The notes: generated from the letters alone by a model not told the origin. Positions 3,990 to 63,953 are shown, counted from the stretch's first letter. The stretch: 64,000 nt of DNA from a virus (IMGVR_UViG_3300037067_009128:53326-117325), one strand, 5' to 3'. Numbers and translations: made by a program.

Positions 3990-4022
3990 ATTTAGTCAAA
4001 ATTAGTGGGAAAAAATTTTATA

Positions 4023-4040
4023 CAAAAATAAATCATCATT
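4023..4040 (-). promoter_or_regulatory. GA-N5-TAWWTTTR promoter motif
   Basis: AATGA-tgatt-TATTTTTG on the minus strand, upstream of 3989. Confidence 0.5.
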
Positions 4041-4416
4041 GAATTAATTTCTCTTGTTCTCTTTGTTTCTCATATTGTACTTCTTTTATATCTAAGTATA
4101 CATCTTTAGCTAAATTCCAATTTGGATCATCAGATTCTTCAAGTCTTTCAACTTCTCTTTCTATTAAAGTCATTAACCATTTAGTAAATGATTTAAAATT
4201 TATAAATTTAATATATATTGTAAAAGTTTGAAACATATCAATATGTTGATTTGATATGTATGCTTTAACTGAAGCATTTCTTCCATGTTTATAAAAGATA
4301 TTACTTCCAGGAATCCTAGTATCTTTTATACCATATCTTTTCATTACATCTTTATATTTATACTCTCTCATATTTATCCATTCTTTTAATACCATTACTA
4401 TTAGGACTACCTTCAT
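4036..4416 (-). CDS. Hypothetical protein (likely start ATG 4371)
   Basis: ORF in the minus-strand operon. Confidence 0.55.
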   Translation of the reverse strand: MKVVLIVMVLKEWINMREYKYKDVMKRYGIKDTRIPGSNIFYKHGRNASVKAYISNQHIDMFQTFTIYIKFINFKSFTKWLMTLIEREVERLEESDDPNWNLAKDVYLDIKEVQYEKQREQEKLIQ

Positions 4417-4693
4417 TAAAATTTATATAAAACCATCCAGTTTTTACTAATAATTTATGATACCATCTAATTATATATCTTCCATCATATCTAGGACCTA
4501 AATGTATATAATTTTTATCAAGTTTCATAACATTGTAATTCGGATCTACATTTGTTAAAATTTTACATTGATTAGTAGATAAACGATTTAACTGTATTAT
4601 TCTCAAACCTGGGAAATACTCTTCTTTCATACTTGAATCAAATAAGTATCCTGGATGGATCATATAAATCTTTTTATGTTTCTTTTTAACCAT
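4358..4693 (-). CDS. Hypothetical protein
   Basis: ORF overlapping the helicase stop; GAGG upstream. Confidence 0.55.
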   Translation of the reverse strand: MVKKKHKKIYMIHPGYLFDSSMKEEYFPGLRIIQLNRLSTNQCKILTNVDPNYNVMKLDKNYIHLGPRYDGRYIIRWYHKLLVKTGWFYINFNEGSPNSNGIKRMDKYERV

Positions 4694-42881: not shown

Positions 42882-43498
42882 AAGTATTATATATTAACCA
42901 TATCCCCATTTACTATGGTTATATTAAACCTTTACAAAAATCGTATCGGTTTATTCTTAATTAAATAATTGATAGTAAAAAACTATTAAAATTCGAAGCA
43001 ATCGTTCGAATTAGTTATCTTGAATTATCTCTGGTGGTAAAAATAATTAACCCATACTATGATCATATTTTGAAATTGACTTGTCAATTCAATTGGTGAA
43101 CAAACGATAAGCTGGAGATCATAACATGATGGAGACCAAAAAGAGTTGAAATGTGTGGGACTTCAAAAGACCTGGAATGTGGGAGACCCCAGGTTAACAT
43201 AAAATTGGGAGACATTTTTAATAGGCCACAATTTTCACCTTGACTAGTGTTTCCCCAAAATTTTTCTCACAATTTTTGAATTTCACATCAAAAAAAATAC
43301 CTCTTTCAGCCTAGCAATGGTAAAACCTATTTCTATAATTTTTATATTGAACTTCAAATCTTATTGGTGACAAGATTAAATACTGAGAAAAACTCAATTC
43401 AACAAACACCAATTGCTTTGAGACTCCCACAAGAATCTCTTAACTCGAATTAGATTTGAATTTCATAAACAATTTAATCAAATTCCAAAAGGAAAAAA

Positions 43499-44293
43499 TT
43501 GTCAGAACTAACATTCTCAAGTCTACTTAAAAAAAGTAAAGAAATCACTCAACAATTTGATGCTTTAAAGAAATTAAAGAATCTTGGGGAAAACTCCATT
43601 CTTGAAGACCGAGAACAATCTACATTTTGGATTGTATCAAAAGAAGGTGAAAGGATTCGAGCAATATGTGGACATAGAAACAATAAAGGGATATGCTTCA
43701 GACCTGCGGGATGGGGGACAGACCATGTTGGATTCAGCAAATGTAAAGACCACATGAGAGGAAGTCTGTACAATTCATTACTTTCTGCTCAACACAACTA
43801 CCCTACAAGACTTGTTGAACTTCTAGAATTCACTAATGATCTAGAAGACAGGTCTTTGAATTCACTCGATCCAGAAATTAAAATGTTAACTGCACTTTAT
43901 CAATTTGTACTCACAAGGCCTAGAGACTCTGAGGACATGGATGTAGAAGAAATAGATACAATAAGAGAGATAATTAAAGATTTGGTAAAAACTAAAGCAT
44001 TGAGAAACAAGATTCAAAGGGAAATGAGACTGGATGCATCAAGTGTCAAAGAGTTCGTACATCAAATTTTCAGTGTCATTTCGTATGCAGTAAATCCAGC
44101 GGTAGCAAAGAAGATCATGGAAGACATCAACAACAAAGTTCTGGTACCATTCATGAGCAAAGACAGAATCATTGGGAAAGACATGAACTTCGAAACAAAA
44201 GCTGCAGAGACTATCAAGAAGTATGGGAACACACTCAAAAATATTGAGAAAGTAAAAGAATCAAAAGATGAGGAAAAAGGAGAAGAAGAATGA
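43499..44293 (+). CDS. Probable terminase small subunit
   Basis: CGH...C.RPAGWGTDHVGFSKCKDH motif of the HGGxSTG-like TerS type; lies upstream of TerL. Confidence 0.65.
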   Translation: MSELTFSSLLKKSKEITQQFDALKKLKNLGENSILEDREQSTFWIVSKEGERIRAICGHRNNKGICFRPAGWGTDHVGFSKCKDHMRGSLYNSLLSAQHNYPTRLVELLEFTNDLEDRSLNSLDPEIKMLTALYQFVLTRPRDSEDMDVEEIDTIREIIKDLVKTKALRNKIQREMRLDASSVKEFVHQIFSVISYAVNPAVAKKIMEDINNKVLVPFMSKDRIIGKDMNFETKAAETIKKYGNTLKNIEKVKESKDEEKGEEE

Positions 44294-44502
44294 AATTCTT
44301 TGAAGATGAAGGAATCGAAAATCAAGAAATTTCTGATATGAAAACTAATAATCCATGTTATGGAGTAAACTGAATGACTCAGGGGATAACATTAGAAATT
44401 AAAGAAGGACAAGCAGAAATTATTTTATTAAGAGAAGAATTAGAAGCTTTATTAAGATATTGGCAAAAAGATGAAATACCTGAATTTGAGAGGAATTGAA
44501 TA

Positions 44503-46017
44503 ATGGGATTAAGAGATAATCGTATAAAACCAATGGGAAACAGTCAATTTTATGACTTGAATACAGACCCTAATGATGTATTATTTAATGAAGCAAGTAA
44601 ATGGGTTGAAGACTTTCAAAGTAATAATAACAAAGCTCAATTCCCTTGGAACTCTCAAATTGCAGAAGAATTCAGAACTGTACCTATACAAACATTAATA
44701 AAAGATCCATACTTTTTAGGCTTTGAAGATAATGTATATGATGGAGTGTTGAATGATATTGTGGATTTGTTTGAAGCTAAAAAAGTACATCCAATACATC
44801 TTGCTATATTTCTAGAAGGGATAGGAGCAGGGAAGACGGTTAAGGCGAGCATTCTGATGTGGATGATCTGGTATTATCTATCAATGGACCCCGATCCTCA
44901 AAGTGTCCACACTCTTGCACCAAGATCAGTCATTGCTTTATTAATGATGAGCCGGTCAGAATTACAGGCTAAGAGGATTACATTCGGAGAAGTATGGAAT
45001 CGATTCCAATCACCTTTCAATAAAGATTATTTCCCTCCAGCTGAGAGATTCAATAGAGAAATTAGAATTGAAGTCAATAATACTTGCGTTTATGCAGGTA
45101 CTAGTTCTGCCCTTTCAAGTTTGGGATACAACTTGTTTGGAGGAGTGATAGACGAAGCTTGTTTAATAAAATCAACTCTACAAAGGGTAAAATTTGAAAA
45201 TCAAATTGATTTAAGTAATATAAATTTGCACCAAAAAAATTTACATAGTGGTGCTATTGTAAGTTCATATAATATAACAAATAAAAAAGTTGAAAACCAA
45301 TTCTCAAAAGGTATATCTTCTATAGGTTTTAGAGAGATATACGAGGTAGAACTGGAAGATGGAACTATTCTAGGTCTTACTGGTAATCAAAAAGTCTTAA
45401 TTAAAACTTCTGATGGAAAAGAGGTTTATAAAAGAGTTGACCAGTTGACTGGAAATGAAGATTTAAGAGAAATGAAAATAAAATCAATTCGTAAAAAAGA
45501 AGTTTTAGAACCTGTTTATGATGTTGTTAACGTTAAAAACAATAAAAACTTTTTAGTAAAAACTGATTCTGGAAAATATATAGTTTTACACAATTCATTT
45601 CTTGAATCAACTGAAGAATCTAAAAAATCTGAAGATAAGTACGATGCATGTGAAGAAATATACCATGCAATCTTTAATAGGATGATTTCTAGGTTCTTAA
45701 AGAAAGGAAGAATCCCAGGGTTACTTTGTATGGTCACATCTCCTAATTTCCCTGATGATTTTGTACATAAAAAGATAGATGAAGCTAAGGCAAAAGGAGT
45801 CGATTCTGGAATTTTTTACAGGATTAGGTCTACATGGGATGCAAAAGGGGAAAGATATTATCCTGTAAAAGATGCATTTTATATCAATACTGATGATTCA
45901 GAGATTATAAATGATGATAATTTAACACAACTTTTAAATGCAATTCCTAAAAAAATGTATCCATTAGATTACGATATGGAATTATTAACTAAACTTGCAA
46001 AATATTTTATAAAATGA
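44503..46017 (+). CDS. Terminase large subunit, N-terminal ATPase part, with intein
   Basis: Walker A GIGAGKT, Walker B GGVIDEA|S, motif III VTSP. Confidence 0.88.
   Translation: MGLRDNRIKPMGNSQFYDLNTDPNDVLFNEASKWVEDFQSNNNKAQFPWNSQIAEEFRTVPIQTLIKDPYFLGFEDNVYDGVLNDIVDLFEAKKVHPIHLAIFLEGIGAGKTVKASILMWMIWYYLSMDPDPQSVHTLAPRSVIALLMMSRSELQAKRITFGEVWNRFQSPFNKDYFPPAERFNREIRIEVNNTCVYAGTSSALSSLGYNLFGGVIDEACLIKSTLQRVKFENQIDLSNINLHQKNLHSGAIVSSYNITNKKVENQFSKGISSIGFREIYEVELEDGTILGLTGNQKVLIKTSDGKEVYKRVDQLTGNEDLREMKIKSIRKKEVLEPVYDVVNVKNNKNFLVKTDSGKYIVLHNSFLESTEESKKSEDKYDACEEIYHAIFNRMISRFLKKGRIPGLLCMVTSPNFPDDFVHKKIDEAKAKGVDSGIFYRIRSTWDAKGERYYPVKDAFYINTDDSEIINDDNLTQLLNAIPKKMYPLDYDMELLTKLAKYFIK
45160..45594 (+). 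mobile_element. Mini-intein (145 aa) just after the TerL Walker B
   Basis: Starts CLIKS; block F VYDV; ends VLHN with Ser+1; block B reads TGNQ instead of TxxH. Confidence 0.88.
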
Positions 46018-47710: not shown

Positions 47711-49441
47711 ATGAGTAATAAAATGAGAAAAAAACCATCAAATCCTAGAATTAAATCCACACCAACAGTTGATATAGATTCTGATTTAAAAGCTGGGTAT
47801 AAATCTGAAGAAGATCTTCAAAGAATTATAGGGAAAGCTATTGATTTACACAAACATTATCATCAAGATGATTTGTATAATCAAGTTGCTCCTGTTGATA
47901 AAGTAAGTATCTTTAATTCAGAATTTACTAAAAAGAAGATAAAAAATGAAGATGTTAAAGATATTATATCTTCTGCATTTAATTATTTTCCTGATTGTGA
48001 AATTACTCAAGAAGAATTATTTTTATTACAAAATGCAATAAGAACTAAATATAGAGATGATAATCTTTGTCAAGGAGTTGTAGATTCTTTTGTTGATTAT
48101 GTTATTGGAAGTGGAGTTACGGTTAATTCTCCAGTAAAAGAGGTTAATGATGTTTTATGTGATTTCAGAAATATGAATAAAATGGCATTAAGAGAAAGGA
48201 ATATAACGAAAGACATATTTCTTGATGGAGAATATTTTTGTTTGATTTACACAGATAAGTCTGGGAATTGTTTTTTAAGGAAAGCAGCACCTTCTATGAT
48301 AACTTCTATAGAAACATCAAGAAGAGATATAGAAGCTGTTTTATCATTTAAAAAAGATGCTGTTGAGTATGATAGTGAAGGAAATCCTTCTGGAGTCCCT
48401 TTCACTCAATATATAAAGAATATTGATTATGATAAACTTATAAAAATGACTGATTTAGGATACATTCCAAGTGTATATTCAAGTAAATTAGAAAAAAATG
48501 TTGTTTGTAAATTCTTCAAGTTATCTGAAGAAGGTGTATTACGAGGAAGACCTCCTTTGAGGAATTTCCCAAAATATGCTAAACTTTATGAAAATTTTAT
48601 TATGGATAGAATGGTTTTGAATCATGAAAGATCTAAAGTTGTGTGGATAAAGAAACTTAAAGGGAGAACTTCAGAAGAGACATCATCAACTGCTCCTAGA
48701 GGTGGTATGATGTTGGTTGAAAGAGATGGGATTGAATATAGAATTGAATCTTCAAAATTAGATTCTGCAGAAGCAAAAGAAGATGCACTACATATACTTT
48801 ATTACTTAGGTTCTGGCATAAGATACCCTTTACATATCTTAAATCAACGTACATCTGAAGAAGTTTATGCCTCGATTCGTAAAAGTGATACTCCTTTCAG
48901 TACAATGATAACTGGTTACCAATGGTATGAAGCATTAGAATTTCAAGAAATATATAAATATACTATAGAGCAAAAAGTTAAAGCAAAGAAATTAAAGAAA
49001 CAGTATACATATCCAGCATATTCTGAAGAAAGTGTTATGTTTGCATTACTTAAAGTGACTGAATTAATTGAAGATGATGTTAACAGACCTACAGAAGAAA
49101 TATTAAATGTAGTTGATGGGATTTTAAAATCTGATGGATTAAAGGATATAACTAAAAATACTCTTGAAATACCTATTTCTCAAGATTTTCCTCAAATTAT
49201 TTGGCAAGACCCAAAAGAGATGGCAGAAGTATTGAAGATCCATAAAGAAATAGGTATTGCTTCTATACCATCACTTGCTGCTAAAGCGGGATATAATTGG
49301 GAAAGAGAATTCTCTAAAATCATTATAACTCAAAAACAGTTATTAAAAAATAACATTATTCCTGATCCTAATCCACCTAAAGAAACTGGAACAGAAAAAC
49401 CTAATGGAAACAAAACAAGTAAACCTGTTAATAAGAAGTAA
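47711..49441 (+). CDS. Portal protein
   Basis: Size and position after TerL; DYVIGSG, FLDGEYF and RGRPPL motifs. Confidence 0.8.
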   Translation: MSNKMRKKPSNPRIKSTPTVDIDSDLKAGYKSEEDLQRIIGKAIDLHKHYHQDDLYNQVAPVDKVSIFNSEFTKKKIKNEDVKDIISSAFNYFPDCEITQEELFLLQNAIRTKYRDDNLCQGVVDSFVDYVIGSGVTVNSPVKEVNDVLCDFRNMNKMALRERNITKDIFLDGEYFCLIYTDKSGNCFLRKAAPSMITSIETSRRDIEAVLSFKKDAVEYDSEGNPSGVPFTQYIKNIDYDKLIKMTDLGYIPSVYSSKLEKNVVCKFFKLSEEGVLRGRPPLRNFPKYAKLYENFIMDRMVLNHERSKVVWIKKLKGRTSEETSSTAPRGGMMLVERDGIEYRIESSKLDSAEAKEDALHILYYLGSGIRYPLHILNQRTSEEVYASIRKSDTPFSTMITGYQWYEALEFQEIYKYTIEQKVKAKKLKKQYTYPAYSEESVMFALLKVTELIEDDVNRPTEEILNVVDGILKSDGLKDITKNTLEIPISQDFPQIIWQDPKEMAEVLKIHKEIGIASIPSLAAKAGYNWEREFSKIIITQKQLLKNNIIPDPNPPKETGTEKPNGNKTSKPVNKK

Positions 49442-51507: not shown

Positions 51508-51926
51508 TGATTTTAGTACCTAATGTTGCTTTATTAAAAATATTAGAATTAATTTTTAAAGACACATCTCCTGTAAATCAAACTTTAAGATTATTTACTA
51601 ATGATTTAACGCCTGATGAAGACACAGTCTTAACAGATTTTATTGAAATGTCTGGGTTAAGTTATGCTGTTATTACATTAACAAGATCAGAATGGACAGC
51701 TGCTTTATCTGGAGGAGTTCCTACTATTGAGAATTTAGAGAAAACATTTACTTTTACACAAGGTACTCCAGCTACTATTTATGGATACTATGTTACATTT
51801 AATGATGGAAGTGATCGTTTATTGTATTGCGAAAGATTTGATGGGCCTAGTACTGTTGGAGCTACAGGAGATGACACAATAAAGATAGTCCCTAAAGTTA
51901 CACAAAAAACAGAGATTTTAGTATGA
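51507..51926 (+). CDS. Small virion structural protein (fibre-associated)
   Basis: LRLFTNDLTP...F.E..G..YA...TIYGYYV...LLYCERF. Confidence 0.65.
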   Translation: MILVPNVALLKILELIFKDTSPVNQTLRLFTNDLTPDEDTVLTDFIEMSGLSYAVITLTRSEWTAALSGGVPTIENLEKTFTFTQGTPATIYGYYVTFNDGSDRLLYCERFDGPSTVGATGDDTIKIVPKVTQKTEILV

Positions 51927-54900
51927 ATTATGATTTTACACCTGTTGGAGGTGTTGTTGTTGGAAGTTCTGCTTCTAAGAGTATTACCAAAAAAGTAATA
52001 GGTTCTGGAGGATTAATATCTGGTGGATCAGGTGTTGTTGGTGATTATATTTATAGATTTTTCTTTGCTCATGGTGGTCCAGGATTTAAAGTAAATGACT
52101 TGATTCATACTAGTAGAATAGACTATACAGGAAGTGGTACTCCAGTTACATTATTTGAAATCTATGGTAAAGTTACTTCAATTGATGCTGAAGGTCAAGC
52201 TTTAATAGGTATATTAAACTGGACTTCAACTATTGGGGATTATCTTGAACAGTATGGTGATTATTTAGAATGGGTAAGATTTGGTAACACTTCTGATTCT
52301 TCTAGAGCTAATCTTATAGAAATCAATTCATCCATCGGTTCTAATACTCCTTATATAAGTATTAAACAGAATATTACAAGTATTAGTGCATTAACAAATC
52401 CAGAAAATTTATTAGTTTTATTAGGAAGAACTAAAAATTATGTTGATAATCATTTTGGTACAATTCCTGATGATGGGATATTAGTAAAGAATGGTTATTT
52501 TAGAGGTTGTGTTAAAGTAGGATCAGTACAAGATACTACTGACTCTAGTGGTAATAACTGGTCAATTTCTGGAACGGGAGCTTATCTTGACAAGTATGGT
52601 AACTTTAGAGTTGGAAATGATAATGCCTATATTCGTTATAAAAAAGAAGATAGTTCATTTAAAATTAAAGCTGCAGATTTTATATTAGAGACATCACATT
52701 TAAAAATAAATTCTGTTACAGAAACTATTTTAATAGGAAGTGCATCTGCTTTTGATACTGGAGTTGGTATTTTTATCGGGAATGATTCAGGGTATAAAAT
52801 CAGAATGGGTGATCCTACAGCACAAAGATTTCAATATGATGGCACAGATATTATAATTTTTGATAAAGATGATGAAGAAGTATTCAATTCAACATCTTTG
52901 GGTGCAAATATGAGTGGCTGGAAACTTACTTCAACTGAATTTTATAAAGAATATATACATATCAATTCATCTGGTTATATTCAAAGTAAAAACCCTGTTA
53001 CACCTTTTTATGAGTATTGGAAATTAGATAATGATGGTTTAAAAATCAATATATCTGGTAATAATAGGATGATTCTTGGAAAAGCTGGGGCTTTATTTGG
53101 GATTTATATTGATTCATATAATTATTGGTATGATGATTTTGCATTTAGGATAGGGGGAGCAACTACTAATTACCTATTATTTTCTTTTGGTGGAAGCCTT
53201 ACTATAAATTCTGATACATTTAAACTTACTGCAGGAACAGATCTTGTTATTGATTCTACTGCAAAATTAATAACTTTAGCAAACAGTGCAATGAAATTTG
53301 GATATGGAGTAGGGGGTACAGGTTTACATGGTGTATATGTTGATGCAAATAATTATTGGTATTCTGATGGTACATTTAAAGTTTATACAGATGCAGATAA
53401 TTATATAAGTAAAGCTGCTACAGGAGTTGTTATAAAATCTACTTCTTTTTTATTAAAAGCAGGTAATTTAGTTTTTAATTCAACTGGGAGTATAAAATCA
53501 TATGATACTAATTATTCATACTGGGAATTAAAAGCCGATGGTTCTGGGTTTTTAGCATTAAATAATATCCATTGGGATACTTCAGGTAATTTGAGTATAA
53601 CGGGTTCAATATCAGCTTCAAGTTTTAATATTGATGAGAATAATTATTGGCATTCAGATGGTACATTTAAAATATACACTGATGCAGATAATTATATTTC
53701 AAAATCGACTAGTCTTGTTATTAAATCAACATCATTTTTATTAAAAGGTGGTAATTTAGTTTTTAATTCTACAGGAAGCATAAAATCATCATATGAAACT
53801 ACAGTTTATTGGGAATTAAAAGCTGATGGGTCTGGATTATTGGCATCAAATAATATTCACTGGGATTCTGCTGGGGCTTTGTCAGTTACAGGTACTATTA
53901 CAGGGTCTAGTTTTCAGATTGATGTTAATAATTATTGGAACTCAGATGGAACATTTAAAATTTATCATGATGCAGATAACTATATTTCAAAAGGAACTAG
54001 TTTTGTAATTAAAGCAACATCATTTTTATTATCTGCTGGTAACATTTCAATAAATTCAACAGGAAGCATTAAATCATCTGCTGGAGCTACTACTTATTGG
54101 GATTTGAAGGCAGATGGATCAGGTGATCTTGCTTTAGGTAAAATATCATGGACATCAGCTGGAGTATTATCAATTACTGCTTCTTTAAGTGCTTCATCTT
54201 TTTCAATCGATGCAAATAATTATTGGAATTCAGATGGGACTTTTCAGATTTATATCGATGATAATAATAGGCTTTCTAAAGGAACTTCAAGTTTTGTATT
54301 AAGATCTGAGAGTTTTATTCTTAAAGCAGGAAATTTGTTGTTAACTTCTGTTGGTAATATCAAATCATATTCTGGAACTACAGTTTATTGGGATTTAAAA
54401 GCAGATGGGTCTGGATTATTGGCAAGTGGGAATATTGCATGGACATCGGCAGGAGCTATAACTTTAGGAGGAACTATTACCTGGAATAGTAAACCGTCTT
54501 ACACTGCAAGTGAGGTGGGAGCTAGACCTTATGATTGGGTTCCTACAAAAAGTGATTTAGGGACTTGGACAACCTATATAGATGCTAATGGAATCTACAC
54601 AGGGACTTTAACAGCTAATCAAATAAATGTTTCAGGTATTAGTGCTTCTAATATAACAACAGGAACTTTATCTGCTGACAGAATAGCTTCTGGATCAATT
54701 ACATCTACTAAATTAAGTGTTTCTACACTTTCTGCAATTAGTGCAAATTTAGGTACAGTCACTGCAGGAAGTATTTCAGGTGTTACAATTACTTCAAGTA
54801 CTTTTGCAACAAATCCTGATGGTTATACAAGAACAAAACTTACATCAGGGACTGCTGGAATTACTTTTTATAATTTATATATTGATTGGGAATTATCAAG

Positions 54901-55699
54901 TTCAATTAGTACAGATATTAGTTCTCCAAATCGTTTAATTATGAGTTTTAGTGGTTCAGATTATTATAATTTTAGTGGACCAGTAACAGCTACATCATTT
55001 ACTGGAATACAAGTATCAGATTTACCATCACATAATCATGATACTTTATATTCAGCTATAGGACATGACCACAGTGGAGTTTACTCAGCTGTGGGACATG
55101 ACCACAGTGGAGTTTACTCAGCTGTGGGACATACTCATTCTTATGTACCTACAGGTAGTTGGACTAATGGTAATATTATTGTAGGGGCAAGTTATGGAGC
55201 AGGATTAGGAGATAGTGGTTATACACCATCATCATTTGCCACAGCTGGTCATGATCATTCAGGGGTATACTCTCCTGCAGGACATGACCACAGTGGAGTT
55301 TACTCAGCTGTAGGTCATGATCATAATAGTTCATATGTTGCAATTAATACAGCTATAACAGGAGCTACTAAATGTAAAATAACATATGATACTAAAGGTT
55401 TAGTAACATCAGGGGCAGATTTAGCCGCATCTGATTTACCTACTGGAATTGATGCTGCTAAAATAAGTTCTGGGAATGTTAGTAATACAGAATTTGATTA
55501 TTTAAATGGTGTTACATCTGCAATACAAACTCAATTAGGGGGGAAATTATCACTTACAGGTAATGGTTTAAGTAACGGAATTTTAGTAACTTCATATGGG
55601 TCAATTGGGATTATTGCTGGTTGGGCTGGAACGTTTACTGACGGAGATAGTAATGTTTACACAGTAACAGATGGAGTTATAACAGGTAAAAATTTATAA
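51923..55699 (+). CDS. Long tail fibre / receptor-binding protein
   Basis: G/S/T-rich; 96-97 aa repeats; LSAISANLG-type fibre repeats; HxH repeats. Confidence 0.8.
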   Translation: MNYDFTPVGGVVVGSSASKSITKKVIGSGGLISGGSGVVGDYIYRFFFAHGGPGFKVNDLIHTSRIDYTGSGTPVTLFEIYGKVTSIDAEGQALIGILNWTSTIGDYLEQYGDYLEWVRFGNTSDSSRANLIEINSSIGSNTPYISIKQNITSISALTNPENLLVLLGRTKNYVDNHFGTIPDDGILVKNGYFRGCVKVGSVQDTTDSSGNNWSISGTGAYLDKYGNFRVGNDNAYIRYKKEDSSFKIKAADFILETSHLKINSVTETILIGSASAFDTGVGIFIGNDSGYKIRMGDPTAQRFQYDGTDIIIFDKDDEEVFNSTSLGANMSGWKLTSTEFYKEYIHINSSGYIQSKNPVTPFYEYWKLDNDGLKINISGNNRMILGKAGALFGIYIDSYNYWYDDFAFRIGGATTNYLLFSFGGSLTINSDTFKLTAGTDLVIDSTAKLITLANSAMKFGYGVGGTGLHGVYVDANNYWYSDGTFKVYTDADNYISKAATGVVIKSTSFLLKAGNLVFNSTGSIKSYDTNYSYWELKADGSGFLALNNIHWDTSGNLSITGSISASSFNIDENNYWHSDGTFKIYTDADNYISKSTSLVIKSTSFLLKGGNLVFNSTGSIKSSYETTVYWELKADGSGLLASNNIHWDSAGALSVTGTITGSSFQIDVNNYWNSDGTFKIYHDADNYISKGTSFVIKATSFLLSAGNISINSTGSIKSSAGATTYWDLKADGSGDLALGKISWTSAGVLSITASLSASSFSIDANNYWNSDGTFQIYIDDNNRLSKGTSSFVLRSESFILKAGNLLLTSVGNIKSYSGTTVYWDLKADGSGLLASGNIAWTSAGAITLGGTITWNSKPSYTASEVGARPYDWVPTKSDLGTWTTYIDANGIYTGTLTANQINVSGISASNITTGTLSADRIASGSITSTKLSVSTLSAISANLGTVTAGSISGVTITSSTFATNPDGYTRTKLTSGTAGITFYNLYIDWELSSSISTDISSPNRLIMSFSGSDYYNFSGPVTATSFTGIQVSDLPSHNHDTLYSAIGHDHSGVYSAVGHDHSGVYSAVGHTHSYVPTGSWTNGNIIVGASYGAGLGDSGYTPSSFATAGHDHSGVYSPAGHDHSGVYSAVGHDHNSSYVAINTAITGATKCKITYDTKGLVTSGADLAASDLPTGIDAAKISSGNVSNTEFDYLNGVTSAIQTQLGGKLSLTGNGLSNGILVTSYGSIGIIAGWAGTFTDGDSNVYTVTDGVITGKNL
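53342..54480 (+). repeat. Four ~288-bp intragenic repeats in the fibre gene
   Basis: GATxxxAATAATTATTGG (DxNNYW) at 53342, 53633, 53921, 54209. Confidence 0.9.
55031..55324 (+). repeat. 33-bp coding repeats (GHDHSGVYSAV)
   Basis: GGACATGACCACAGTGGAGTTTACTCAGCTGT at 55061, 55094, 55280. Confidence 0.92.
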
Positions 55700-55735
55700 T
55701 TAAAAGTTAAAAAACTTAAAAAGGAGAAAATACAA

Positions 55736-56137
55736 ATGATTAATTTAACCAACAAACAATTATTAGATTCAATTCAAGGATTACAAGCTTTAACTAATTT
55801 GATAGATGAATGCCAAATAGGATATAAAGTTGCAAGAAAGTGTCTTGATATTGTTAATGCTGTCAATAAAGAAATTGATGAGCATTTTAATAAACATGCA
55901 AATGAGTTAACTCTGAAACATTTTGAAAAAGTTGAAGATAAAACTCAACAATCAGGATTTAAGTTTAATCCTAAACAAGAAAATAGTGAAGAAGAATATC
56001 AAAAAGAAATGAAAGATTTATTAGAAAAACAAATTGAATTGGTTAATGTATTTAAATTTACAGAAAATGAATTACAAGATGTTAAACTAAAAGCAACTGC
56101 AGTTATAGTTTTAGAACCTTTTACAATAAGAAAATAA
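55736..56137 (+). CDS. Helical protein after the fibre gene (DUF1617-like, possible assembly chaperone)
   Basis: Position and helical pattern; AAGGAG RBS. Confidence 0.5.
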   Translation: MINLTNKQLLDSIQGLQALTNLIDECQIGYKVARKCLDIVNAVNKEIDEHFNKHANELTLKHFEKVEDKTQQSGFKFNPKQENSEEEYQKEMKDLLEKQIELVNVFKFTENELQDVKLKATAVIVLEPFTIRK

Positions 56138-56138
56138 A

Positions 56139-57935
56139 ATGGGTGATTTTAATATAGGTTTAAACCAAAGTTTTGAGAAATCTTTTTCTCCAAAAAAGTT
56201 AAATAGTTTAAAACTTTGGTTACGTTCAAGTTCTGATATCACATTAGGTGATGTTAATAATCAGTACAAACTTGAAACATCGGGAAATCTAACAAGAGAA
56301 AATTCTAGTAAACTTCAGATTAATTCTAAAAATTTCAGTATTCACATACAAATCAAATGTGATTTTTTACCTGAAAGTATAATAAATCTTGTTTATCGTG
56401 ATACTCAAATATTCTTTAGATTGAATTTAAGTGGGTTAATTGAATGTGAATTAGTAGATTCTGATCTTAAGACAAGAAATAATATTTCTCTTACTAATAT
56501 ATGTGATGGTAATTATCATGATGTTGTTTTAATTGTTAATTATGAATCTGGAAATTATTTGTATATTGATAATGAACTTGAGTCTTCAGATACCATTAGG
56601 TTCACAGGTGATATCATCAACACAAATCTAATCAATATTGGCAATACTACTGAAACATCAAAATTATTTTATATTAAATTTGTAAGAATTTTTAATAAAG
56701 TTTTATCTTTATTTGAGATTTCAAATTTAAATACACAAGAGTCAATACCTGCAGAATATCAGTGGTCTGATAACGAATCATTAATCAGTAATCCTAGTTT
56801 TGAGAATTGGGATTCAATGAATGAAGTAACATTAGATGGTGTAGATCAACATATGTATAGAAATGCACCTACAAATTTAATTCCCATTGAAAGTAGTAAT
56901 TTTGACACTGATGGGATTGATTATTGGTCTACAAATAATCTTACTAAAACATATGACTCTGTTAACAAATGGATGGTATTACAAGTAAGTAAAGTTTCTA
57001 ATATACAAAATCTTTATAAAGACATTTCTGATAAAGTAAATAATAAAAAGTATAGAATTAGTTTCAAAGCTAAAACATTAGACATAGAATTAACTGATTC
57101 TGTTTTTAAAGTATCTGATTCTTCTATAATTAAGAATCCTAATTTGAATTTTTATTTTCAAGAATATATATTTGAGGGTATCTCATTAAACTCTTTGACT
57201 TCAATAAGTCTTGATGGTGGAAATAAACCTTTAAATTCAAGATTCATATTAGATGACATTGTTGTTATTGAAGATTGGGAGTTGGATTTTAATAGTCAAG
57301 AATTAGGACAGAATTACAATTTTAATAATATAGATGAACCAATTGAAGTACAATTCACTGGAACTCAATATATTGAAAAGACATTACCCAATCCAAATTT
57401 ATTTACTAATGGTAATTTTGAATCAGGAGTTAATACTGATAACATTTTGTCAACTTTTGGTATAACAACTTCTTATGATGATACTGATTCAGGAAAAACA
57501 GGAAGTTATTGTTTTAAAGGTGTAACAGTTTTATCAGAATGTGGGATTTATAAATTAAATCTATTACAAGTTGAGAAAAAATATAAATGTTCATTAAGAT
57601 ATAAATCCACATCTGATTTAATAATTTACTCTGAATTACCAGGTAGAATATTAAAACAAGAACTTATTATACTTAAACATTGTGATGATTGGAATTATAT
57701 TGAGTTTGAATTTCAAGCTGAGTATAATAGATTTGGTATATATAGTATTTTATCAGGAACATTTTATATTGATAGCTTATATTTAGGATTAAATCATTGT
57801 TTAGATATGAACGATTCTAATATTTTAAATTTTAGTAAAGATAATAACTTTGAAATCTCAGAAGTAAATGTTCTTGGGTATGATGAGAATACAATATTTT
57901 CTTTTGGTGGAGTTAATTTAGTATGGAGAGATTAA
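56139..57935 (+). CDS. LamG/ConA-like and CBM-like virion protein (opening halves of nested domains)
   Basis: LKLWL, VRIFNKVLS, NPSFE, LDGVDQ, NLFTNGNFESG, FYID. Confidence 0.7.
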   Translation: MGDFNIGLNQSFEKSFSPKKLNSLKLWLRSSSDITLGDVNNQYKLETSGNLTRENSSKLQINSKNFSIHIQIKCDFLPESIINLVYRDTQIFFRLNLSGLIECELVDSDLKTRNNISLTNICDGNYHDVVLIVNYESGNYLYIDNELESSDTIRFTGDIINTNLINIGNTTETSKLFYIKFVRIFNKVLSLFEISNLNTQESIPAEYQWSDNESLISNPSFENWDSMNEVTLDGVDQHMYRNAPTNLIPIESSNFDTDGIDYWSTNNLTKTYDSVNKWMVLQVSKVSNIQNLYKDISDKVNNKKYRISFKAKTLDIELTDSVFKVSDSSIIKNPNLNFYFQEYIFEGISLNSLTSISLDGGNKPLNSRFILDDIVVIEDWELDFNSQELGQNYNFNNIDEPIEVQFTGTQYIEKTLPNPNLFTNGNFESGVNTDNILSTFGITTSYDDTDSGKTGSYCFKGVTVLSECGIYKLNLLQVEKKYKCSLRYKSTSDLIIYSELPGRILKQELIILKHCDDWNYIEFEFQAEYNRFGIYSILSGTFYIDSLYLGLNHCLDMNDSNILNFSKDNNFEISEVNVLGYDENTIFSFGGVNLVWRD

Positions 57936-57936
57936 T

Positions 57937-58245
57937 ATGATAAAAGAATTTTCTGATTTAACTTCTGGAGTTCCAGTATTAACAGATGAATTATTAATTA
58001 GTAGGAATAATATTCCTTACAGAATTGTTATAGGTAGTACAAGTTTAACTCTTTTTTCAGTATTAGATTGTGAAGTTAATGATATGTTTGTTGTAGAAGA
58101 AGTTTTAGGTATTAAACATTGTGTAAATAAATCACAGTCTCAAATAAAAACTCTTTTAGGTATTACCACATTGGAAGGCAATTATGCTTTATCTATAAGC
58201 GGTCAATACGGATTTTATAATATTTTTAATCCTTTATCTTTATAA
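57937..58245 (+). CDS. Hypothetical virion protein
   Basis: KEFSDLT...TDELLI fibre-like N-terminus. Confidence 0.55.
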   Translation: MIKEFSDLTSGVPVLTDELLISRNNIPYRIVIGSTSLTLFSVLDCEVNDMFVVEEVLGIKHCVNKSQSQIKTLLGITTLEGNYALSISGQYGFYNIFNPLSL

Positions 58246-58256
58246 GGAAATTAACT

Positions 58257-59069
58257 ATGAAAAAAATAATTTTAATAAAATCAGACGGTAATGTAGGTGG
58301 ATATGATACAATTCAGGCTGCAATTGATGCGGGTGCAAGCGGTGATTGTGTGATTTTATACCCCGGTACTTATAACGAAAATTTAACTATTAATAAAAAT
58401 TTAACTTTGGAGAGTATCGGTGATGTAACAATAGCTGGTGATAGTACTAGTGGAACTATTGCTATTGCTGCAAATACGACTGTTTCAATTAAAGGTTTTC
58501 CAACTATTACAAATAGCAATGGAGTAGATAAAAGGATTGTTTGTGCAGACGCTACTGCAATTATTAATGATTTTTACTGGGAATTCTCTGGGAGAATTCA
58601 GCAGTTACCACCAGCAACTACAACTTCAGGCTCTTTAGCTGCAGGTAAAGTTTATTTCATAACCACATTTAATGCAGGTGATGATTTCAGTAATGTTGCC
58701 AGCGTAATAAGTGGGACAATAAATACAACTGGATGCTTTTTTAAGGCTACTGGCACAACACCAACTAATTGGAGTAATGGCTCCACATTAGATTATAGTG
58801 GTGCACCTTATATCTTGGCTTTATTTAAGAATACTACCGGACAAGATTTTGGAATAAATTGGAGTTATAGCAGTACAGGTAGTGTAACTTGGAGTGGGAT
58901 ACTTAGTCCGATAAAAACACTTATTTCTATTACAAGTCAGGGTGCAAGGCAGGTTACTTATAGTATTTCAACTAATACTATTGGAATAACTTGTTATAAT
59001 ATCACAGCAGACCCACCTGCCTTAGTTAATGGTACAGCTTTTATGCTTAATATAAGAATGTTTCCATGA
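58257..59069 (+). CDS. Virion protein with pectin-lyase-like N-terminal cap
   Basis: YDTIQAAIDAGASGDCVILYPGTYNENLTINKNLTL. Confidence 0.7.
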   Translation: MKKIILIKSDGNVGGYDTIQAAIDAGASGDCVILYPGTYNENLTINKNLTLESIGDVTIAGDSTSGTIAIAANTTVSIKGFPTITNSNGVDKRIVCADATAIINDFYWEFSGRIQQLPPATTTSGSLAAGKVYFITTFNAGDDFSNVASVISGTINTTGCFFKATGTTPTNWSNGSTLDYSGAPYILALFKNTTGQDFGINWSYSSTGSVTWSGILSPIKTLISITSQGARQVTYSISTNTIGITCYNITADPPALVNGTAFMLNIRMFP

Positions 59070-62000
59070 TTACTAAAATTTCCATAGGCGGTGGCAATTT
59101 ATCCCATGACACTAATGTGACAAATGCTTTTATAGCAGGTTACGAAAGTAATGGTGCAAGTTGGACGGGTGAAATAATTCAGCTTGGCGAAGGTGATTTT
59201 AATTCACAGATATTAACTGCATTAAATAATGGAAGTGATATTTATATCCGTTCAACAACAGGCTTAACCGCTTATATAGCAAGTGCTCTTGCTAACTACC
59301 CAAACATTCTATGTTTTGTACCGGCAGGTGCAAACAGCCCAGGAGAAATTTTTGAAAGTAATGGCGGAATAAATCTTCCTTGCATAGTTGTTACAGGTGC
59401 TGGGGATATTGCAAATGAAACTGGTGATGATATAGAATTCTTTAGTCAAGATCCTATTACTATTGAACCAGATTATTCTTCATACAGCAACGGTTATATT
59501 GCTGGACAGATTGCTTATATAATAAATACTCTTAATTGCTCAAGTTGGGAAGCCCGTTATAGGGCTCATGTTACAGGTTCAAAAAATGGTGTATGGCATG
59601 AAACAGATGGGTTTGGTTTAATAAATGTTCCGGCTGCTCTTGCATTCACAGGAACGATTCCAGATGATCCTTATATTAATCATATATTGGAAATAGGAGA
59701 TATTTCTTTTTCTTTAGAAGATCTAGAATTAACAATTGTTTGTGATGTGGTAGAAAATGCAGAAAATTATATTATAGAACAATTAATTGATGGTGTTTGG
59801 ACAGTTGTAACTAATCAAGTAACAGTTGAATATGGAAATGTTTATAGATTTAGATATAAAGCTAATATGACAAATGGTTATGAGGTATTAGAAGAGACTG
59901 GATATAGTGAAACATTTTTATTTAATGTTCCAGTTTTACCTACAATTATTAATCAATCTAATAATATAAATTGGATTGGTTATAATTCACATAGTTGTGA
60001 TATTTCATATAATGATTATAAAAGTGGAACTTCTTGTTTAGAAATACAATCAACAAGAGAAGGTGATGAGTATGATGATTATTGCTTTTTAAGTAATAGT
60101 TATTTTAGAAGTTTAATTCGAAATAAACAATACCTAATAAATTTCTGGGCAAGAACGGGATTATCAGATACTTCAATTACAGTAAAGATAGGAAATAAAT
60201 CAAAAACATTTAACACAGTTTCTCACACTGTTGAGGTATTTACAGAATGTAATTTTTATTTTACAGTTGACATTACAGAACTTAATCAAGGAATCAAACT
60301 TTACTTAAATCAATCTGATACTGTTTATATTGATGATTTTACTATTTCTGAAGCTCATGACTTTAGTATGGGTATTTGGGTAAAAAATGGTCTTATTCAA
60401 ACTACTGATAAAATAATTCAATTAAGTAATGGAAGTAGTTCAATAAGTTTTAAATACGAAATAGGAACTTCTTGTGTTATAGCTTCAATAAATGATGAAG
60501 AAATAAGATATGAAGATGAATCTATAATTGACGATACTTGGAAATTATTAAGTATTACTGGTGATAGAGACGGAAGTTTAAAGTTTTATATAAATCAGAG
60601 TTTAATAGGTACATCTGTTATTTCTTCAAATGTGGGATTATTAAAAGATTTTGAAAGTTTATCAAGTTCTGAAGGTCTCATACACTCAATAAGTGATTTA
60701 CAGATTGTTAGAGATCATATTTGGGATTTAAATGGGATAAAAGATATTTATAATAACGGATTTAAACATAAATATAATACAGGTGAAGTAGTATTATGGA
60801 ATGATTTTAAAGAGGAAAATCAAAGAGGTAAAGATCTTTCATTATTAAAAAATAACATTACTTTATATAATACTCCTATTTACACGTCTATATTAAAAAA
60901 TAATATTATTAATAATTGGAAAAAAATTACAAATGGTTTAAGTAATATTATTTATGATGAATCAGAAGAGACTATTAAATTTGAAATAGATTCTACACCA
61001 AACAGAGTTTATATTAAACAAGAAATATTACTTGTTAAAGATAAAAAATATACTTTTGAAATCTGGACTAAAGGAAGTAATTCTTCTACAGGTTATATAA
61101 TTAACATAATTAATCCAAATGGTTTAAGTTTAAAATCTGATTTAACATTTGGGGTTTTGGATAATATAACAGTAATTCCTGGAACAACTTATAGTAAAAA
61201 AGCTATAACATTTATTGCAGATTCTGATGGGCTATTTACTATTGAAATTAGTAATAATACTGTAAATAGTGCTTCTTCATCTTTATGGTTTAGTAATTTT
61301 AGTTTTACAGAAGGGTATGATTCTACTATAAATATATGGGTTAAGAATAATTCTGATTTAGAAAGTAATTTATTGAATTATGGAGGAAATAATCAATTAT
61401 CTATAAAAAAGAATACTAATAATAAATTTTGTATATCAAATTCAGGAGTAGGAGATTATAGACTCACAGATTCTGTTTTAACAGAAGATGAATATTATTT
61501 ATTAAGTGTAATTTTAATAGGAGGAGCAAAATTCCCTAAAGATATTCAACTTTATTTAAATGGTGAATTAAATCAAGGAACATTTACTCAAGATTTAGGT
61601 AATTATATTGCTTTAGGTAATCCTACAAAATTATGTATAGCTTCTAATAATGGAACTTCTAATTTCTTTCAAGGTAGTATAGGCGAAATAGAAATATTAA
61701 AAGGTGTAAATTTAACTGACACACAAATTAAAGAATTATATAATTCAAGAAAAGATTTTAATAACACAAATCAAGTGTTACATATTAAACCTGATGTTAA
61801 TGGAGAAGATTTATCAGATAAAGAAAATGATGTTACTATTGTAAACTCTCCAACATTCTCAACAATTGATTTGAAGATAGAAGATTGGAATCATTTTTAT
61901 AATGGTAATTCAAAAATAGATAAAAATACTGATAATGCAAGAAGTACAACTTGTGTTAATTTTAAATTAGACTCAAATAATTCTGAAGTAAAAGTATCTC

Positions 62001-62974
62001 AAAGTTTTAATTTACAATCATCAAAGAATTATGCATTAGAAGTTTGGGCTAAAGCAGATGATGTACTTTCAAGTTATCACATTAATATAAAAGATTTTAA
62101 TGGTTTGGTCTTAACTGAAGATAATACTTGGATTGAAGAAGAATCAATTATTGTAGTTCCTGGAACTTCATATTCAAGGAAGTTTATCCAATTTCAAGTA
62201 CCTATTTCTGGGGTATATACAATAGAATTAAAAAGTATCGGAGTTGCAAGTTCTAATCTATACTTTGATGATCTTAGTCTTTATTTTGAAGGATGTCTTG
62301 TTGAATTACTTCAATCAAATATTACAGGAAGTAAATGGGTAGATTCATCTTCAAATCAATTGGATTTTACAAACAACTCAATTTTAGATTTAATCTCTAT
62401 TAATATAGATACATTAAATGATTTAAGTATTAATTCTAATAATATGAGTCAAGACACCAAAGATAATCAACCTATTCTTATTGAAGGTGATAAATATAAT
62501 ATCATTAGATTTGATGGAGTAGATGATGTTTTAATATCAAACATTTCTGATCTTACAGATTTTTCAATTTTTATCTTATTCAAAATTAGAACTTCACCCA
62601 CAGTTAAATCTATTATATTTGGGAACACACTGGACAATCTTTGGATTAATAATTCTTTACAACTAGGAGTTTATTGTAGTAATTTTAATAATACAATAAA
62701 TCTGCAATTAACTCAAGACACATTAGAGATATTAGGTTTAGTTTATGATTCAACAAATAATCAATTAGAAATATATCAAAAAGAAAATAAAATTAATACC
62801 ATCTCAGGAATTATTAATGGTAATAATCTTTTAAGTTGTCTTGGTGGGTTATCAAATGGAACTTCTTGTACAAGTTTAGATTTAGTTGAAATCATTTGCA
62901 CTTCTGATAAAATGAATGATATCCAAATGCAAGCTCTAGTCAATTCTTTAAAAGAACAATACTTCAATGATTAG
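59066..62974 (+). CDS. Large virion protein: subtilase-like N-terminus, then closing halves of CBM/LamG domains
   Basis: HDTNV, PAGAN, SSYSNGYIAG, GFGLIN; VYIDD, GSIGEIEI, LYFDD, FDGVDD. Confidence 0.7.
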   Translation: MITKISIGGGNLSHDTNVTNAFIAGYESNGASWTGEIIQLGEGDFNSQILTALNNGSDIYIRSTTGLTAYIASALANYPNILCFVPAGANSPGEIFESNGGINLPCIVVTGAGDIANETGDDIEFFSQDPITIEPDYSSYSNGYIAGQIAYIINTLNCSSWEARYRAHVTGSKNGVWHETDGFGLINVPAALAFTGTIPDDPYINHILEIGDISFSLEDLELTIVCDVVENAENYIIEQLIDGVWTVVTNQVTVEYGNVYRFRYKANMTNGYEVLEETGYSETFLFNVPVLPTIINQSNNINWIGYNSHSCDISYNDYKSGTSCLEIQSTREGDEYDDYCFLSNSYFRSLIRNKQYLINFWARTGLSDTSITVKIGNKSKTFNTVSHTVEVFTECNFYFTVDITELNQGIKLYLNQSDTVYIDDFTISEAHDFSMGIWVKNGLIQTTDKIIQLSNGSSSISFKYEIGTSCVIASINDEEIRYEDESIIDDTWKLLSITGDRDGSLKFYINQSLIGTSVISSNVGLLKDFESLSSSEGLIHSISDLQIVRDHIWDLNGIKDIYNNGFKHKYNTGEVVLWNDFKEENQRGKDLSLLKNNITLYNTPIYTSILKNNIINNWKKITNGLSNIIYDESEETIKFEIDSTPNRVYIKQEILLVKDKKYTFEIWTKGSNSSTGYIINIINPNGLSLKSDLTFGVLDNITVIPGTTYSKKAITFIADSDGLFTIEISNNTVNSASSSLWFSNFSFTEGYDSTINIWVKNNSDLESNLLNYGGNNQLSIKKNTNNKFCISNSGVGDYRLTDSVLTEDEYYLLSVILIGGAKFPKDIQLYLNGELNQGTFTQDLGNYIALGNPTKLCIASNNGTSNFFQGSIGEIEILKGVNLTDTQIKELYNSRKDFNNTNQVLHIKPDVNGEDLSDKENDVTIVNSPTFSTIDLKIEDWNHFYNGNSKIDKNTDNARSTTCVNFKLDSNNSEVKVSQSFNLQSSKNYALEVWAKADDVLSSYHINIKDFNGLVLTEDNTWIEEESIIVVPGTSYSRKFIQFQVPISGVYTIELKSIGVASSNLYFDDLSLYFEGCLVELLQSNITGSKWVDSSSNQLDFTNNSILDLISINIDTLNDLSINSNNMSQDTKDNQPILIEGDKYNIIRFDGVDDVLISNISDLTDFSIFILFKIRTSPTVKSIIFGNTLDNLWINNSLQLGVYCSNFNNTINLQLTQDTLEILGLVYDSTNNQLEIYQKENKINTISGIINGNNLLSCLGGLSNGTSCTSLDLVEIICTSDKMNDIQMQALVNSLKEQYFND

Positions 62975-63033
62975 GTCATTCTGATTTTTATGATCATCAA
63001 TATATTTAACTATTAACATTTAACTATTAAATC

Positions 63034-63525
63034 TTGATGACTATGATAAATCTTATAATTGCTGCTGAAACAACTTATACATCATCTCCCGAATTTGTTT
63101 GGGGAATCATCATTGCTAGTACTCTTATTAATATTATTTACCATCTTACACAATCAAAAAGTAAAAGATCTGAAAGTGATATTATTAAACTTTACTCTCT
63201 TAGTACTGCTAATAGTAAAGAATTGAATGTTTTGAAAAATGGTGTTCAAAATATAAAAGAAGAAAGTTTAGTTAATATTGAAAAAAAGATTGAATCGTTA
63301 GTAAGTGATTATAAATGTTTAGAAGAAAAAGTTAATAAATCAGATTCTAAGATATTAATTTGGTCTAATGAAATAAAAGATTTGATGAGAGAGAATGAAA
63401 GACAACTTACATCAAAAATAGATGATGTAAAGTTAAAAGTTTGTAATGTATCAACATTAGTTGAAAGCACATTAAAAGAATTAAAAGAATTACTAAAAAG
63501 CACTATAAATGGAGTACAAAAATGA
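63034..63525 (+). CDS. Single-TM coiled-coil protein (possible holin/lysis accessory)
   Basis: N-terminal TM helix then coiled coil; position after tail genes. Confidence 0.5.
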   Translation: MMTMINLIIAAETTYTSSPEFVWGIIIASTLINIIYHLTQSKSKRSESDIIKLYSLSTANSKELNVLKNGVQNIKEESLVNIEKKIESLVSDYKCLEEKVNKSDSKILIWSNEIKDLMRENERQLTSKIDDVKLKVCNVSTLVESTLKELKELLKSTINGVQK

Positions 63526-63953
63526 AACACATTTCAATCCCGATAATTTTAAGTATAATATCTGTCATAGTATTATTTTTATTTTTAATTCCTGCAGAGA
63601 ACGATAATAATCTTAAAATAATAGATAATTATTCTAATCAATCATTACAACTTGATTCATTAAATAAATCATTTACATTATCTAATCAATTTAAAGATTT
63701 TAAAGTTGTAAATGATTTAAAAAAACAAATGATGGATTTAGAATTTAAAGAAAAGATAATAAATTATATTTATATTTTTATAAATTCATTACTATTATTA
63801 TCTATTATAGGAATCATTTCTAATTATCTTCAATTTATTTATACAAAATTTGATTTCATACAAGAAGATGGAGCTAATAGAGTATTATCATACAGTTTAC
63901 TTTGTACAACTTTAGTAATATTACTTGTTTATTACTTACAAATGAGTCAATGA
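63522..63953 (+). CDS. Three-TM membrane protein (holin-like)
   Basis: Three hydrophobic segments. Confidence 0.5.
   Translation: MKHISIPIILSIISVIVLFLFLIPAENDNNLKIIDNYSNQSLQLDSLNKSFTLSNQFKDFKVVNDLKKQMMDLEFKEKIINYIYIFINSLLLLSIIGIISNYLQFIYTKFDFIQEDGANRVLSYSLLCTTLVILLVYYLQMSQ

Follow-up and report, generated by a model that had tools for sequence, protein, structure and literature searches.

We analysed a window of 64,000 nucleotides of viral DNA (IMGVR_UViG_3300037067_009128:53326-117325; positions are counted from its first base), and in it two neighbouring genes whose products, P0001 and P0002, carry LamG domains interleaved with carbohydrate-binding modules (CBMs). The window comprises the final 64 kb of one 117,325-bp contig from a groundwater metagenome (2022), with a guanine-plus-cytosine (GC) content of 26.8%, and is phage-like, with numerous small genes and a portal gene at 47711-49441. 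A megablast search with 44-64 kb against GenBank phages gave no match. Open reading frame (ORF) calling placed four tightly packed genes on the plus strand, namely P0001, a 102-aa gene (g102), a 270-aa gene (g270) and P0002. In the family to which P0001 and P0002 belong, a LamG domain is split around inserted CBMs into "open" strands, a body and "close" strands. A preliminary description of the window, made from the sequence alone, had proposed that some seven domains are opened in P0001 and closed in reverse order in P0002, and that the two chains, cut apart by an inserted multi-gene cassette, would need to co-fold along their length. All of the motifs that it quoted were recovered in the translations where it had placed them. 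We find instead that the open module is the only kind of element left unpaired: P0001 contains two such modules that neither a body nor a close follows, and P0002 has two CBM-LamG units with no open. The features are listed here with the evidence for each (HMM, hidden Markov model; i-E, independent E-value).

56139-57935, plus strand: P0001, 598 aa, a LamG followed by two orphan open modules, ending within a CBM start (ORF, translation, Pfam, open-module HMM).
56196-56738, plus strand: canonical Laminin_G_3 with its own LKLWL start strands, P0001 residues ~20-200 (PF13385, 30.8 bits, cut-off 27.6).
56826-57329, plus strand: open module 1, P0001 residues 230-397, A/B strands 'VTLDGVDQHMYRNAPTN', CBMa insert, then 'DWELDFNSQELGQNYNF' (open-module HMM 9-174, i-E 5.6e-6).
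57348-57887, plus strand: open module 2, P0001 residues 404-583, 'VQFTGTQYIEKTLPNPN', CBMb insert, then 'LDMNDSNILNFSKDNNFE' (open-module HMM 9-184, i-E 1.3e-19).
57937-58245, plus strand: g102, of native low GC (0.256), outside the GC island (ORF, GC).
58257-59069, plus strand: g270, GC 0.352 (ORF, GC, BLASTP).
59066-62974, plus strand: P0002, 1302 aa (ORF).
59066-59731, plus strand: head domain, P0002 residues 1-222, conserved and stand-alone elsewhere (46% identity to a 294-aa ORF of viral contig L001).
59732-59953, plus strand: FN3-like tail of the head family, P0002 residues 223-296, not a LamG open strand (tails of head homologues).
59969-60880, plus strand: unit 1, P0002 residues 302-605, CBM1, LamG body 1 and close 'VVLWNDF..KDLS..NNITLYN', no open (unit HMM 69-387, 3e-50).
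60899-61858, plus strand: unit 2, P0002 residues 612-931, CBM2, LamG body 2 and close 'VLHIKPD..EDLS..NDVTIVN', no open (unit HMM 117-388, 5e-21).
61889-62281, plus strand: CBM3, contiguous, P0002 residues 942-1072 (CBM part-HMM, 5e-4; homologues matching residues 643-778 of the search query described below).
62291-62971, plus strand: terminal LamG with its own start and FDGVDD strands, P0002 residues 1076-1302 (sequence; body part-HMM, 6e-3).

The gene arrangement is not an assembly artefact, since a 19.3-kb contig from the source run covers 56596-63600 with zero differences, and identical contigs from an independent landfill metagenome (2018) bridge both the P0001 stop and g102 start (57896-58237) and the junction between the FN3-like tail and CBM1 in P0002 (59799-60306). 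A further run, X2, left 58,444-59,304 uncovered at a depth of 3-4x, and nothing was concluded from this gap. Within 55000-63600, pieces identical to the phage were found in both landfill (2018) and groundwater (2022), with zero differences over the ~3 kb covered; the same phage was therefore present in two habitats. A six-frame scan of the genome identified P0001 and P0002 as its only genes with open, CBM or LamG modules of the nested family.

Homologues were collected by an exhaustive HMMER search with P0002 residues 296-1302 as the query, which gave 149 relatives at identities of at most 34%. Word-index searches of 5.8 billion clustered proteins with P0001 and P0002 retrieved only the queries themselves and no close relatives, and PHROGs gave no match for P0001, P0002, g102 or g270 (g102 also had no Pfam match). 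About 30 of the 149 relatives are proteins of ~390 aa that can be aligned end to end, many of them with an N-terminal signal-peptide-like stretch. Their consensus runs from an N-terminal element ('aVdLnGstQYlsktsPvnLDLNGsErIt') through a CBM ('nW...vYIDDvSLtqa') and a LamG body ('yDllisvWvK...GsiGevqi') to an element at the very C-terminus ('GtvvaWwDWkgngsDkSGnGNdLTg'). The first of these is the FDG strand that opens the Pfam Laminin_G_3 profile, and the last is what ordinarily precedes that strand. The order of the elements thus indicates that the unit is a LamG domain that was split by an inserted CBM and whose leading strands were moved to the end.

The unit therefore reads, in order, open (A/B strands and an LDLNG strand), one or more CBM4_9-like modules, LamG body and close strands, and was described by a unit HMM of 392 positions built from 29 single-unit homologues. 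Exactly one open, one body and one close are present in 65 of the 149 homologues, and in others the open and the body are separated by two to four CBMs. Pfam detected CBM_4_9 above its cut-off in P0013 (32 bits) and P0010 (45.6 bits), and Laminin_G_3 was seen among the homologues too. About eight proteins (P0016, P0036, P0040, P0058, P0060, P0066, P0068 and P0076) have a third nesting level, with 130-145 extra residues at unit-HMM position ~132, inside a CBM that is itself inside a LamG. Three homologues, P0085, P0087 and P0139, have CBM-body-close units with no recognisable open strand anywhere in the protein. The family is highly mosaic, and its LamG domains occur in phage fibres and in secreted Bacteroidota-type proteins. 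A description of the nested LamG/CBM architecture was not found in the literature searched.

A structural view of the nesting came from P0018 (752 aa), which has an open module related to that of P0001 (phmmer, 7e-10) and a C-terminal unit that matches the family at 2e-75. In an AlphaFold2 model based on a 98-row alignment, the predicted local distance difference test (pLDDT) values were 79-94 for the strands at residues 16-30, 71-91 for the LDLNG segment and 85-98 from the CBM through the body to the close; the stretch of ~230 residues that separates the open module from the main CBM was modelled at pLDDT <50. The strands at 16-30 were placed confidently although they lie 540 residues from the body. 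The model contains one pentraxin/LamG domain that extends from residues 13-16 to 752, also after trimming of the low-confidence stretches, as illustrated by its alignment to residues 6-202 of 1sac_A (Z 18.2, root-mean-square deviation (rmsd) 2.9, 186 residues aligned). Domain-within-domain insertion, as put forward in the preliminary description, is a genuine property of the P0001/P0002 family, seen in the consensus of the homologues, and nesting in cis is supported by sequence order together with the confident P0018 model.

P0001 begins with a LamG that is complete, as the PF13385 match over residues 59-194 spans profile positions 12-150 of 151. To identify the modules that follow it, an HMM comprising the A/B strands, the inserted CBM and the LDLNG strand was built from seven homologues, with P0001 excluded; it gave a full-sequence E of 5e-23 for P0001, compared with 0.042 for the best of 200 shuffled sequences. 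Open module 1 aligns to residues 19-178 of P0018 in the phmmer match mentioned above and carries a weak CBM_4_9 signal. Open module 2 matches residues 96-268 of a second homologue, P0003 (phmmer, 5e-17; tblastn, 33% identity over 191 aa). Both orphan modules retain the consensus residues of the family (L.G..Q....P.N and LD.N), and neither is followed by a body or a close; after module 2 there are ~15 residues of the first strand of a further CBM, and the protein then stops. The domains of P0001 that are complete by themselves are its LamG and two CBMs.

In P0002, the match of each unit to the unit HMM begins no earlier than the CBM (that of unit 2 spans residues 656-931), and the open HMM, the open-module HMM and hhalign all gave no open-strand signal; at the level of sequence profiles, P0002 is without open strands. 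Laminin_G_3 scored 52.9 bits over two stretches, the better of which (residues 738-888) covers profile positions 5-150 of 151, and in neither body 1 nor body 2 was a contiguous sandwich that includes the first (FDG) strands, at profile positions ~1-20, found. Since the close strands form the C-terminal end of homologues, they belong to the body that they follow. With the Pfam cut-off for CBM_4_9 at 25.9, CBMa of P0001 and CBM2 of P0002 scored 16.3-16.4 bits and the other CBMs of the window gave nothing, so that a relationship of the window CBMs to CBM_4_9 would hold at the level of the family of homologues only.

When P0002 residues 205-640 were folded alone (AlphaFold2, 97-row alignment), CBM1 was modelled at pLDDT >90 and the LamG at 63-97. 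The CBM1 model aligned to CBM22 structures (4xuo_A, Z 15.0, rmsd 3.3, 142 residues aligned; 4xup also matched), to 2w5f_A (Z 13.9, rmsd 2.4, 136 residues aligned) and to the CBM16 structure 2zew, and the LamG models aligned to PTX3, SAP, CRP, the LamG of PAPP-A and BACOVA_03559 at Z 15-22. The terminal LamG has strands of its own ('LVELLQ..KWVDSSS', 'NDLS' and 'FDGVDD'), and homologues of ~240 aa with close-type strands before the body (P0123, P0134) match query residues 783-1004. Searched alone it was not detected by Pfam, and it is the weakest of the domain calls, its start strands being assigned by motif only. All five CBMs and both end LamGs are thus contiguous within one chain, and four of the six beta-sandwiches of P0002 are complete, the incomplete ones being the LamGs at 432-605 and 752-931.

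A segment of P0002 at residues 243-262 was considered as an open strand acting in cis and was rejected. AlphaFold2 placed it in the A/B slot at pLDDT <50, and it has no profile similarity to opens. It is part of the FN3-like tail of the head family, and its placement in the slot came from MAFFT forcing the open strands of homologues onto those columns; pentraxin structural alignments of the 205-640 model start at model residue 39. Global MAFFT alignments of P0002 residues 296-1302 with all matches, and of full-length P0001, scattered the homologues over the repeats and were not used for folding. A 'GG[VT]N' motif that the end of P0001 appeared to have in common with homologues proved to be an artefact of display.

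The search for an uninterrupted homologue, which had been suggested as a check, was productive. The best database match of both P0001 and P0002 is P0003, a protein of 2430 aa (loci L002-L004) at 31-34% identity, which is encoded in a Bacteroidota prophage after genes for a tube initiator, a sheath initiator/LysM protein and Baseplate_J, with TonB-receptor and CHU_C genes adjoining, which is a tail-fibre position. Its architecture is open-CBM-LDLHG, open-insert-LDFHG, CBMs-body-close and CBMs-body-close, followed by CBM-close-(A/B)-body and CBM-open-body, so that this single chain has the order of P0001 followed by P0002 residues 297-1302. The second module of P0001 is closest to the first of P0003, and CBM1 of P0002 is closest to P0003 residues 1778-1926; the match is architectural and not orthologous. 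In all four family members from viral contigs, open and close lie within one ORF, so that the split was seen only once in the data searched.

The second-best homologue of P0002, P0004 (L005:1887-5581), begins in the middle of a CBM ('MGDATTNYVELP'), and truncated domains are therefore tolerated in the family. Just upstream of its gene are a reverse transcriptase gene (RVT_1, 328 aa) and an ORF of 63 aa with abundant N, G and S, a setting that resembles a diversity-generating retroelement.

The N-terminal 296 residues of P0002 consist of the head and its FN3-like tail. In addition to the ORF of L001, 30 further stand-alone homologues of the head (222-373 aa, 37-61% identity) were found. The same FN3-like tail follows the head in P0153-P0162 (for example 'YKYKAEFTNVYEVLETTAFS' in P0161, compared with 'YRFRYKANMTNGYEVLEETGYS') and is present in most of the head homologues whose tails were read. 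Since the head occurs as a stand-alone protein with this tail, P0002 is a fusion of a complete head-FN3 protein with an array whose first residues are precisely those of a CBM. The head-FN3 family (59066-59953 in the window) consists of unannotated proteins of ~300 aa in 30 clusters, with no Pfam match and 16 invariant positions. The subtilase-like character that had been ascribed to the head was marginal: a profile of 28 homologues reached E 0.46 to one subtilisin-like protease, over its C-terminal 24 residues only, and the head has no Pfam match to any family, subtilase included. The N-terminal 114 residues of g270 are similar to residues 161-286 of the product of the gene that precedes the L001 head homologue (BLASTP, 33% identity, 2e-15). 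Among viral loci, related ones were sought with g270, which gave none, and with the head, which gave that one (L001); sequence searches of the PDB with g270 and the head returned nothing usable.

The region at 58.2-59.7 kb had been described as GC-richer and different in its codons, of which the first holds. The rise in GC is sharply bounded at 58,200-59,700 and comprises g270 (0.352) and head residues 1-222 (0.360), against 0.268 for the genome, and the FN3-like tail and g102 have native GC. GC at third codon positions (GC3) is 0.19 in g270 and 0.18 in the head, within 1.5 standard deviations of the genome mean (0.142, standard deviation 0.035), and GC at second codon positions (GC2) reaches 0.50 in g270. 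With GC3 ordinary and GC2 high, the rise, like that of three other islands of equal height, reflects the amino-acid composition of conserved domains and not foreign codon usage. A search for flanking direct repeats or a target-site duplication around the putative cassette gave short chance matches only. The end of P0001 and the start of CBM1 in P0002 do not abut but overlap by ~20 family positions ('NVLGYDEN' and 'NWIGYNSH'), which falls short of demonstrating that a single gene was cleanly interrupted by an insertion.

Association of the two chains was examined by predicting the complex of P0002 residues 296-612 with P0001 residues 222-598, using alignments made for this analysis and not those of the calibration, that for P0001 being thin (24 rows). 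The median interaction prediction score from aligned errors (ipSAE) was 0.40 (0.40, 0.22 and 0.62 in individual runs), compared with 0.00 for the best control; pLDDT of the partners was at least 66, the runs shared at least 55% of contacts, and no interface was reported. When the predictor was calibrated, 58 of 80 solved complexes reached the threshold, as did 2 of 110 mismatched pairs. Passes at an ipSAE of 0.60 or lower came from only 7 of these 80 complexes and from both of the passing mismatches, so that a pass in this range is wrong more often than right, except for a pairing that was already likely on prior grounds. Strand complementation between P0001 and P0002 is thus weakly predicted by modelling. 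No more than two LamG sandwiches are split across the two chains, since only the P0002 LamGs at 432-605 and 752-931 are without strands that P0001 has in excess.

These observations can be explained in several ways. We favour, at about an even chance of being correct, a product of gene fission or mosaic recombination whose two proteins now fold and act separately. The ancestor would have been a single fibre gene like that of P0003, which was broken by either process. P0001 carries the front of such an architecture, consisting of the complete LamG and two tandem CBM-bearing open modules, and P0002 the back, in which two CBM-body-close units are followed by a CBM and by a LamG that brings its own start strands. 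P0002 has also gained the head-FN3 adaptor of ~296 residues, a separate protein elsewhere. Each chain would be self-folding, giving two fibre or baseplate proteins in which the two open-less LamGs are viable without an A/B strand pair and the orphan open modules of P0001 are leftovers of recombination. The position of P0003 in its prophage suggests that P0001 and P0002 are receptor-binding tail-fibre proteins of the 117-kb AT-rich groundwater phage. Self-folding is favoured because each of the five CBMs and each end LamG is complete within its own chain, unit 1 was modelled confidently alone, and P0085, P0087 and P0139 have open-less units and no open strand anywhere. Several observations weigh against this explanation. 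Exactly two orphan opens and two open-less units in the only two such genes of the genome, within one tight operon, appear too neat for scars, and the orphan modules have kept the consensus residues of the family. The model of P0002 does not leave the A/B slot empty but fills it with low-confidence FN3 residues, so that the slot belongs to the fold as modelled. The nearest relatives, at 34% identity, are too distant to date the split or to assess selection on the orphan pieces.

The neatness of the 2:2 fit, confined to two adjacent genes, is what would be expected if the A/B and LDLNG strands of the two P0001 opens inserted into those two LamG sandwiches of P0002 that have no open. The pairs would be open 2 and body 1 plus open 1 and body 2, or else open 1 and body 1 plus open 2 and body 2. 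Such donor-strand-type complementation would zip the chains at two points and yield a composite fibre displaying five CBMs and four LamGs. The conserved motifs of the orphan opens are consistent with such docking, as are the open strands that appear integral to the sandwich in the P0018 cis model, and the two tandem opens of P0003 ahead of two open-less units make sense only if distant opens pair with later bodies. The complex prediction also points this way (ipSAE 0.40 against 0.00), but it reported no interface and so does not place the contact at the A/B slot, and it used alignments of its own, thin for P0001. P0085, P0087 and P0139 seem to have open-less units and no donor, none of the four viral loci has a second split, the truncated CBM start at the end of P0001 looks more like a scar than a designed terminus, and P0004 begins mid-CBM. 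We therefore regard docking as possible, though it is the less probable explanation. A third view needs no shared ancestor gene, and takes P0001 and P0002 for mosaic pieces of different fibre genes, each acquired independently, the 2:2 fit being coincidental. The best match of P0001 being the first open module of P0003 and that of P0002 the last CBM of P0003 (1778-1926), the ~20-column overlap at the break, the failure to find flanking repeats and the mosaic nature of the family would all agree with this. We nevertheless consider it improbable, given two pieces equally low in GC and GC3 that lie less than 2 kb apart and are the only family members of the genome. Co-folding of some seven domains along the whole length of the chains, as originally proposed, is very improbable. 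Its motifs are all present and the family does nest up to three deep, but each CBM is continuous from 'NW' to 'YIDD' (the items read as closings are whole, contiguous CBMs) and CBM1 models at pLDDT >90 alone. The outermost pairing, of LKLWL in P0001 with FDGVDD in P0002, was wrong, as the first LamG of P0001 is Pfam-complete and the last of P0002 supplies both its start and its FDGVDD strands itself; the close strands go with the body before them. What survives of the contrast between openings and closings is the open module, with two in P0001 and none in P0002; it fails for every other element. The earlier account would have been refuted by chains that fold into complete domains by themselves, and this is what we see for three domains of P0001 and four of the six sandwiches of P0002.

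Other features of the genome were noted alongside these genes. Upstream of P0001, a 1258-aa protein (51923-55699) gave no family match, the portal being the sole recognised structural gene in the window. A segment of ~80 residues in this protein (55295-55555, residues ~1125-1210) is 45-79% identical to segments in 45 unrelated viral contigs, sometimes in several copies per contig (L014), and the remainder of the protein is without relatives there; the segment may be a widespread mobile domain. A search for related loci with the C-terminus of this protein gave 48 loci that share the ~80-residue domain only, and no fibre relatives. The three further GC islands (0.33-0.355 in 1.5-kb windows, mean 0.268) lie over other genes, at 43176-45676, 53676-55676 and contig positions ~4000-6000. 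A 264-aa gene at 43499-44293 has the highest GC3 of the genome (0.318), and recent acquisition is more plausible for it than for the block at 58.2-59.7 kb.

The LamGs at P0001 59-194 and P0002 432-605 and 738-888 belong to the same fold and sequence family as Laminin_G_3 (PF13385) and the pentraxin jelly rolls. In contrast to Laminin_G_3, the domain here is discontinuous, with the strands that precede FDG placed C-terminally (a pentraxin-like order) and one to four domains inserted after the first two strands, and two copies in P0002 are without first strands. CBM1 is predicted to share its fold with CBM_4_9 (PF02018), CBM22 and CBM16, from which the window CBMs differ in scoring ~16 bits (cut-off 25.9), in being inserts of a LamG and in not lying beside a glycoside hydrolase. 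Concanavalin A and favin are lectin jelly rolls related by circular permutation, in which N- and C-terminal segments are exchanged with the fold kept, and the permutation is made post-translationally; here it is gene-encoded and combined with domain insertion. In chaperone-usher pili, an incomplete beta-sandwich is completed by a strand from another chain (donor-strand complementation), which would be a working analogue if docking holds. Unlike those pili, there is no Ig-like pilin fold, chaperone or usher here, and in place of an N-terminal extension, two internal strand pairs on either side of CBMs would act as donor. P0003 has the same order (open-CBM-open ... CBM-body-close, CBM-body-close, CBM-close-body) as P0001 plus P0002, and differs in being a single polypeptide without the head-FN3 adaptor, with extra inserted domains and one more CBM-LamG at its end.

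The family merits description as one in which a discontinuous LamG clamps one to four CBMs between its first and last strands, and of which current domain libraries detect fragments only. The locus itself is a natural experiment in which a nested protein has been cut in two. If the halves dock, they would represent a gene-fission product that still folds like one chain, a natural case of fragment complementation across nested domains, and a new assembly route for receptor-binding fibres, of use in the engineering of modular host range in phages. If there is no docking, LamG sandwiches would tolerate loss of their first strand pair and fibre genes would carry non-functional domain fragments, which would be relevant to the automated annotation of receptor-binding proteins.

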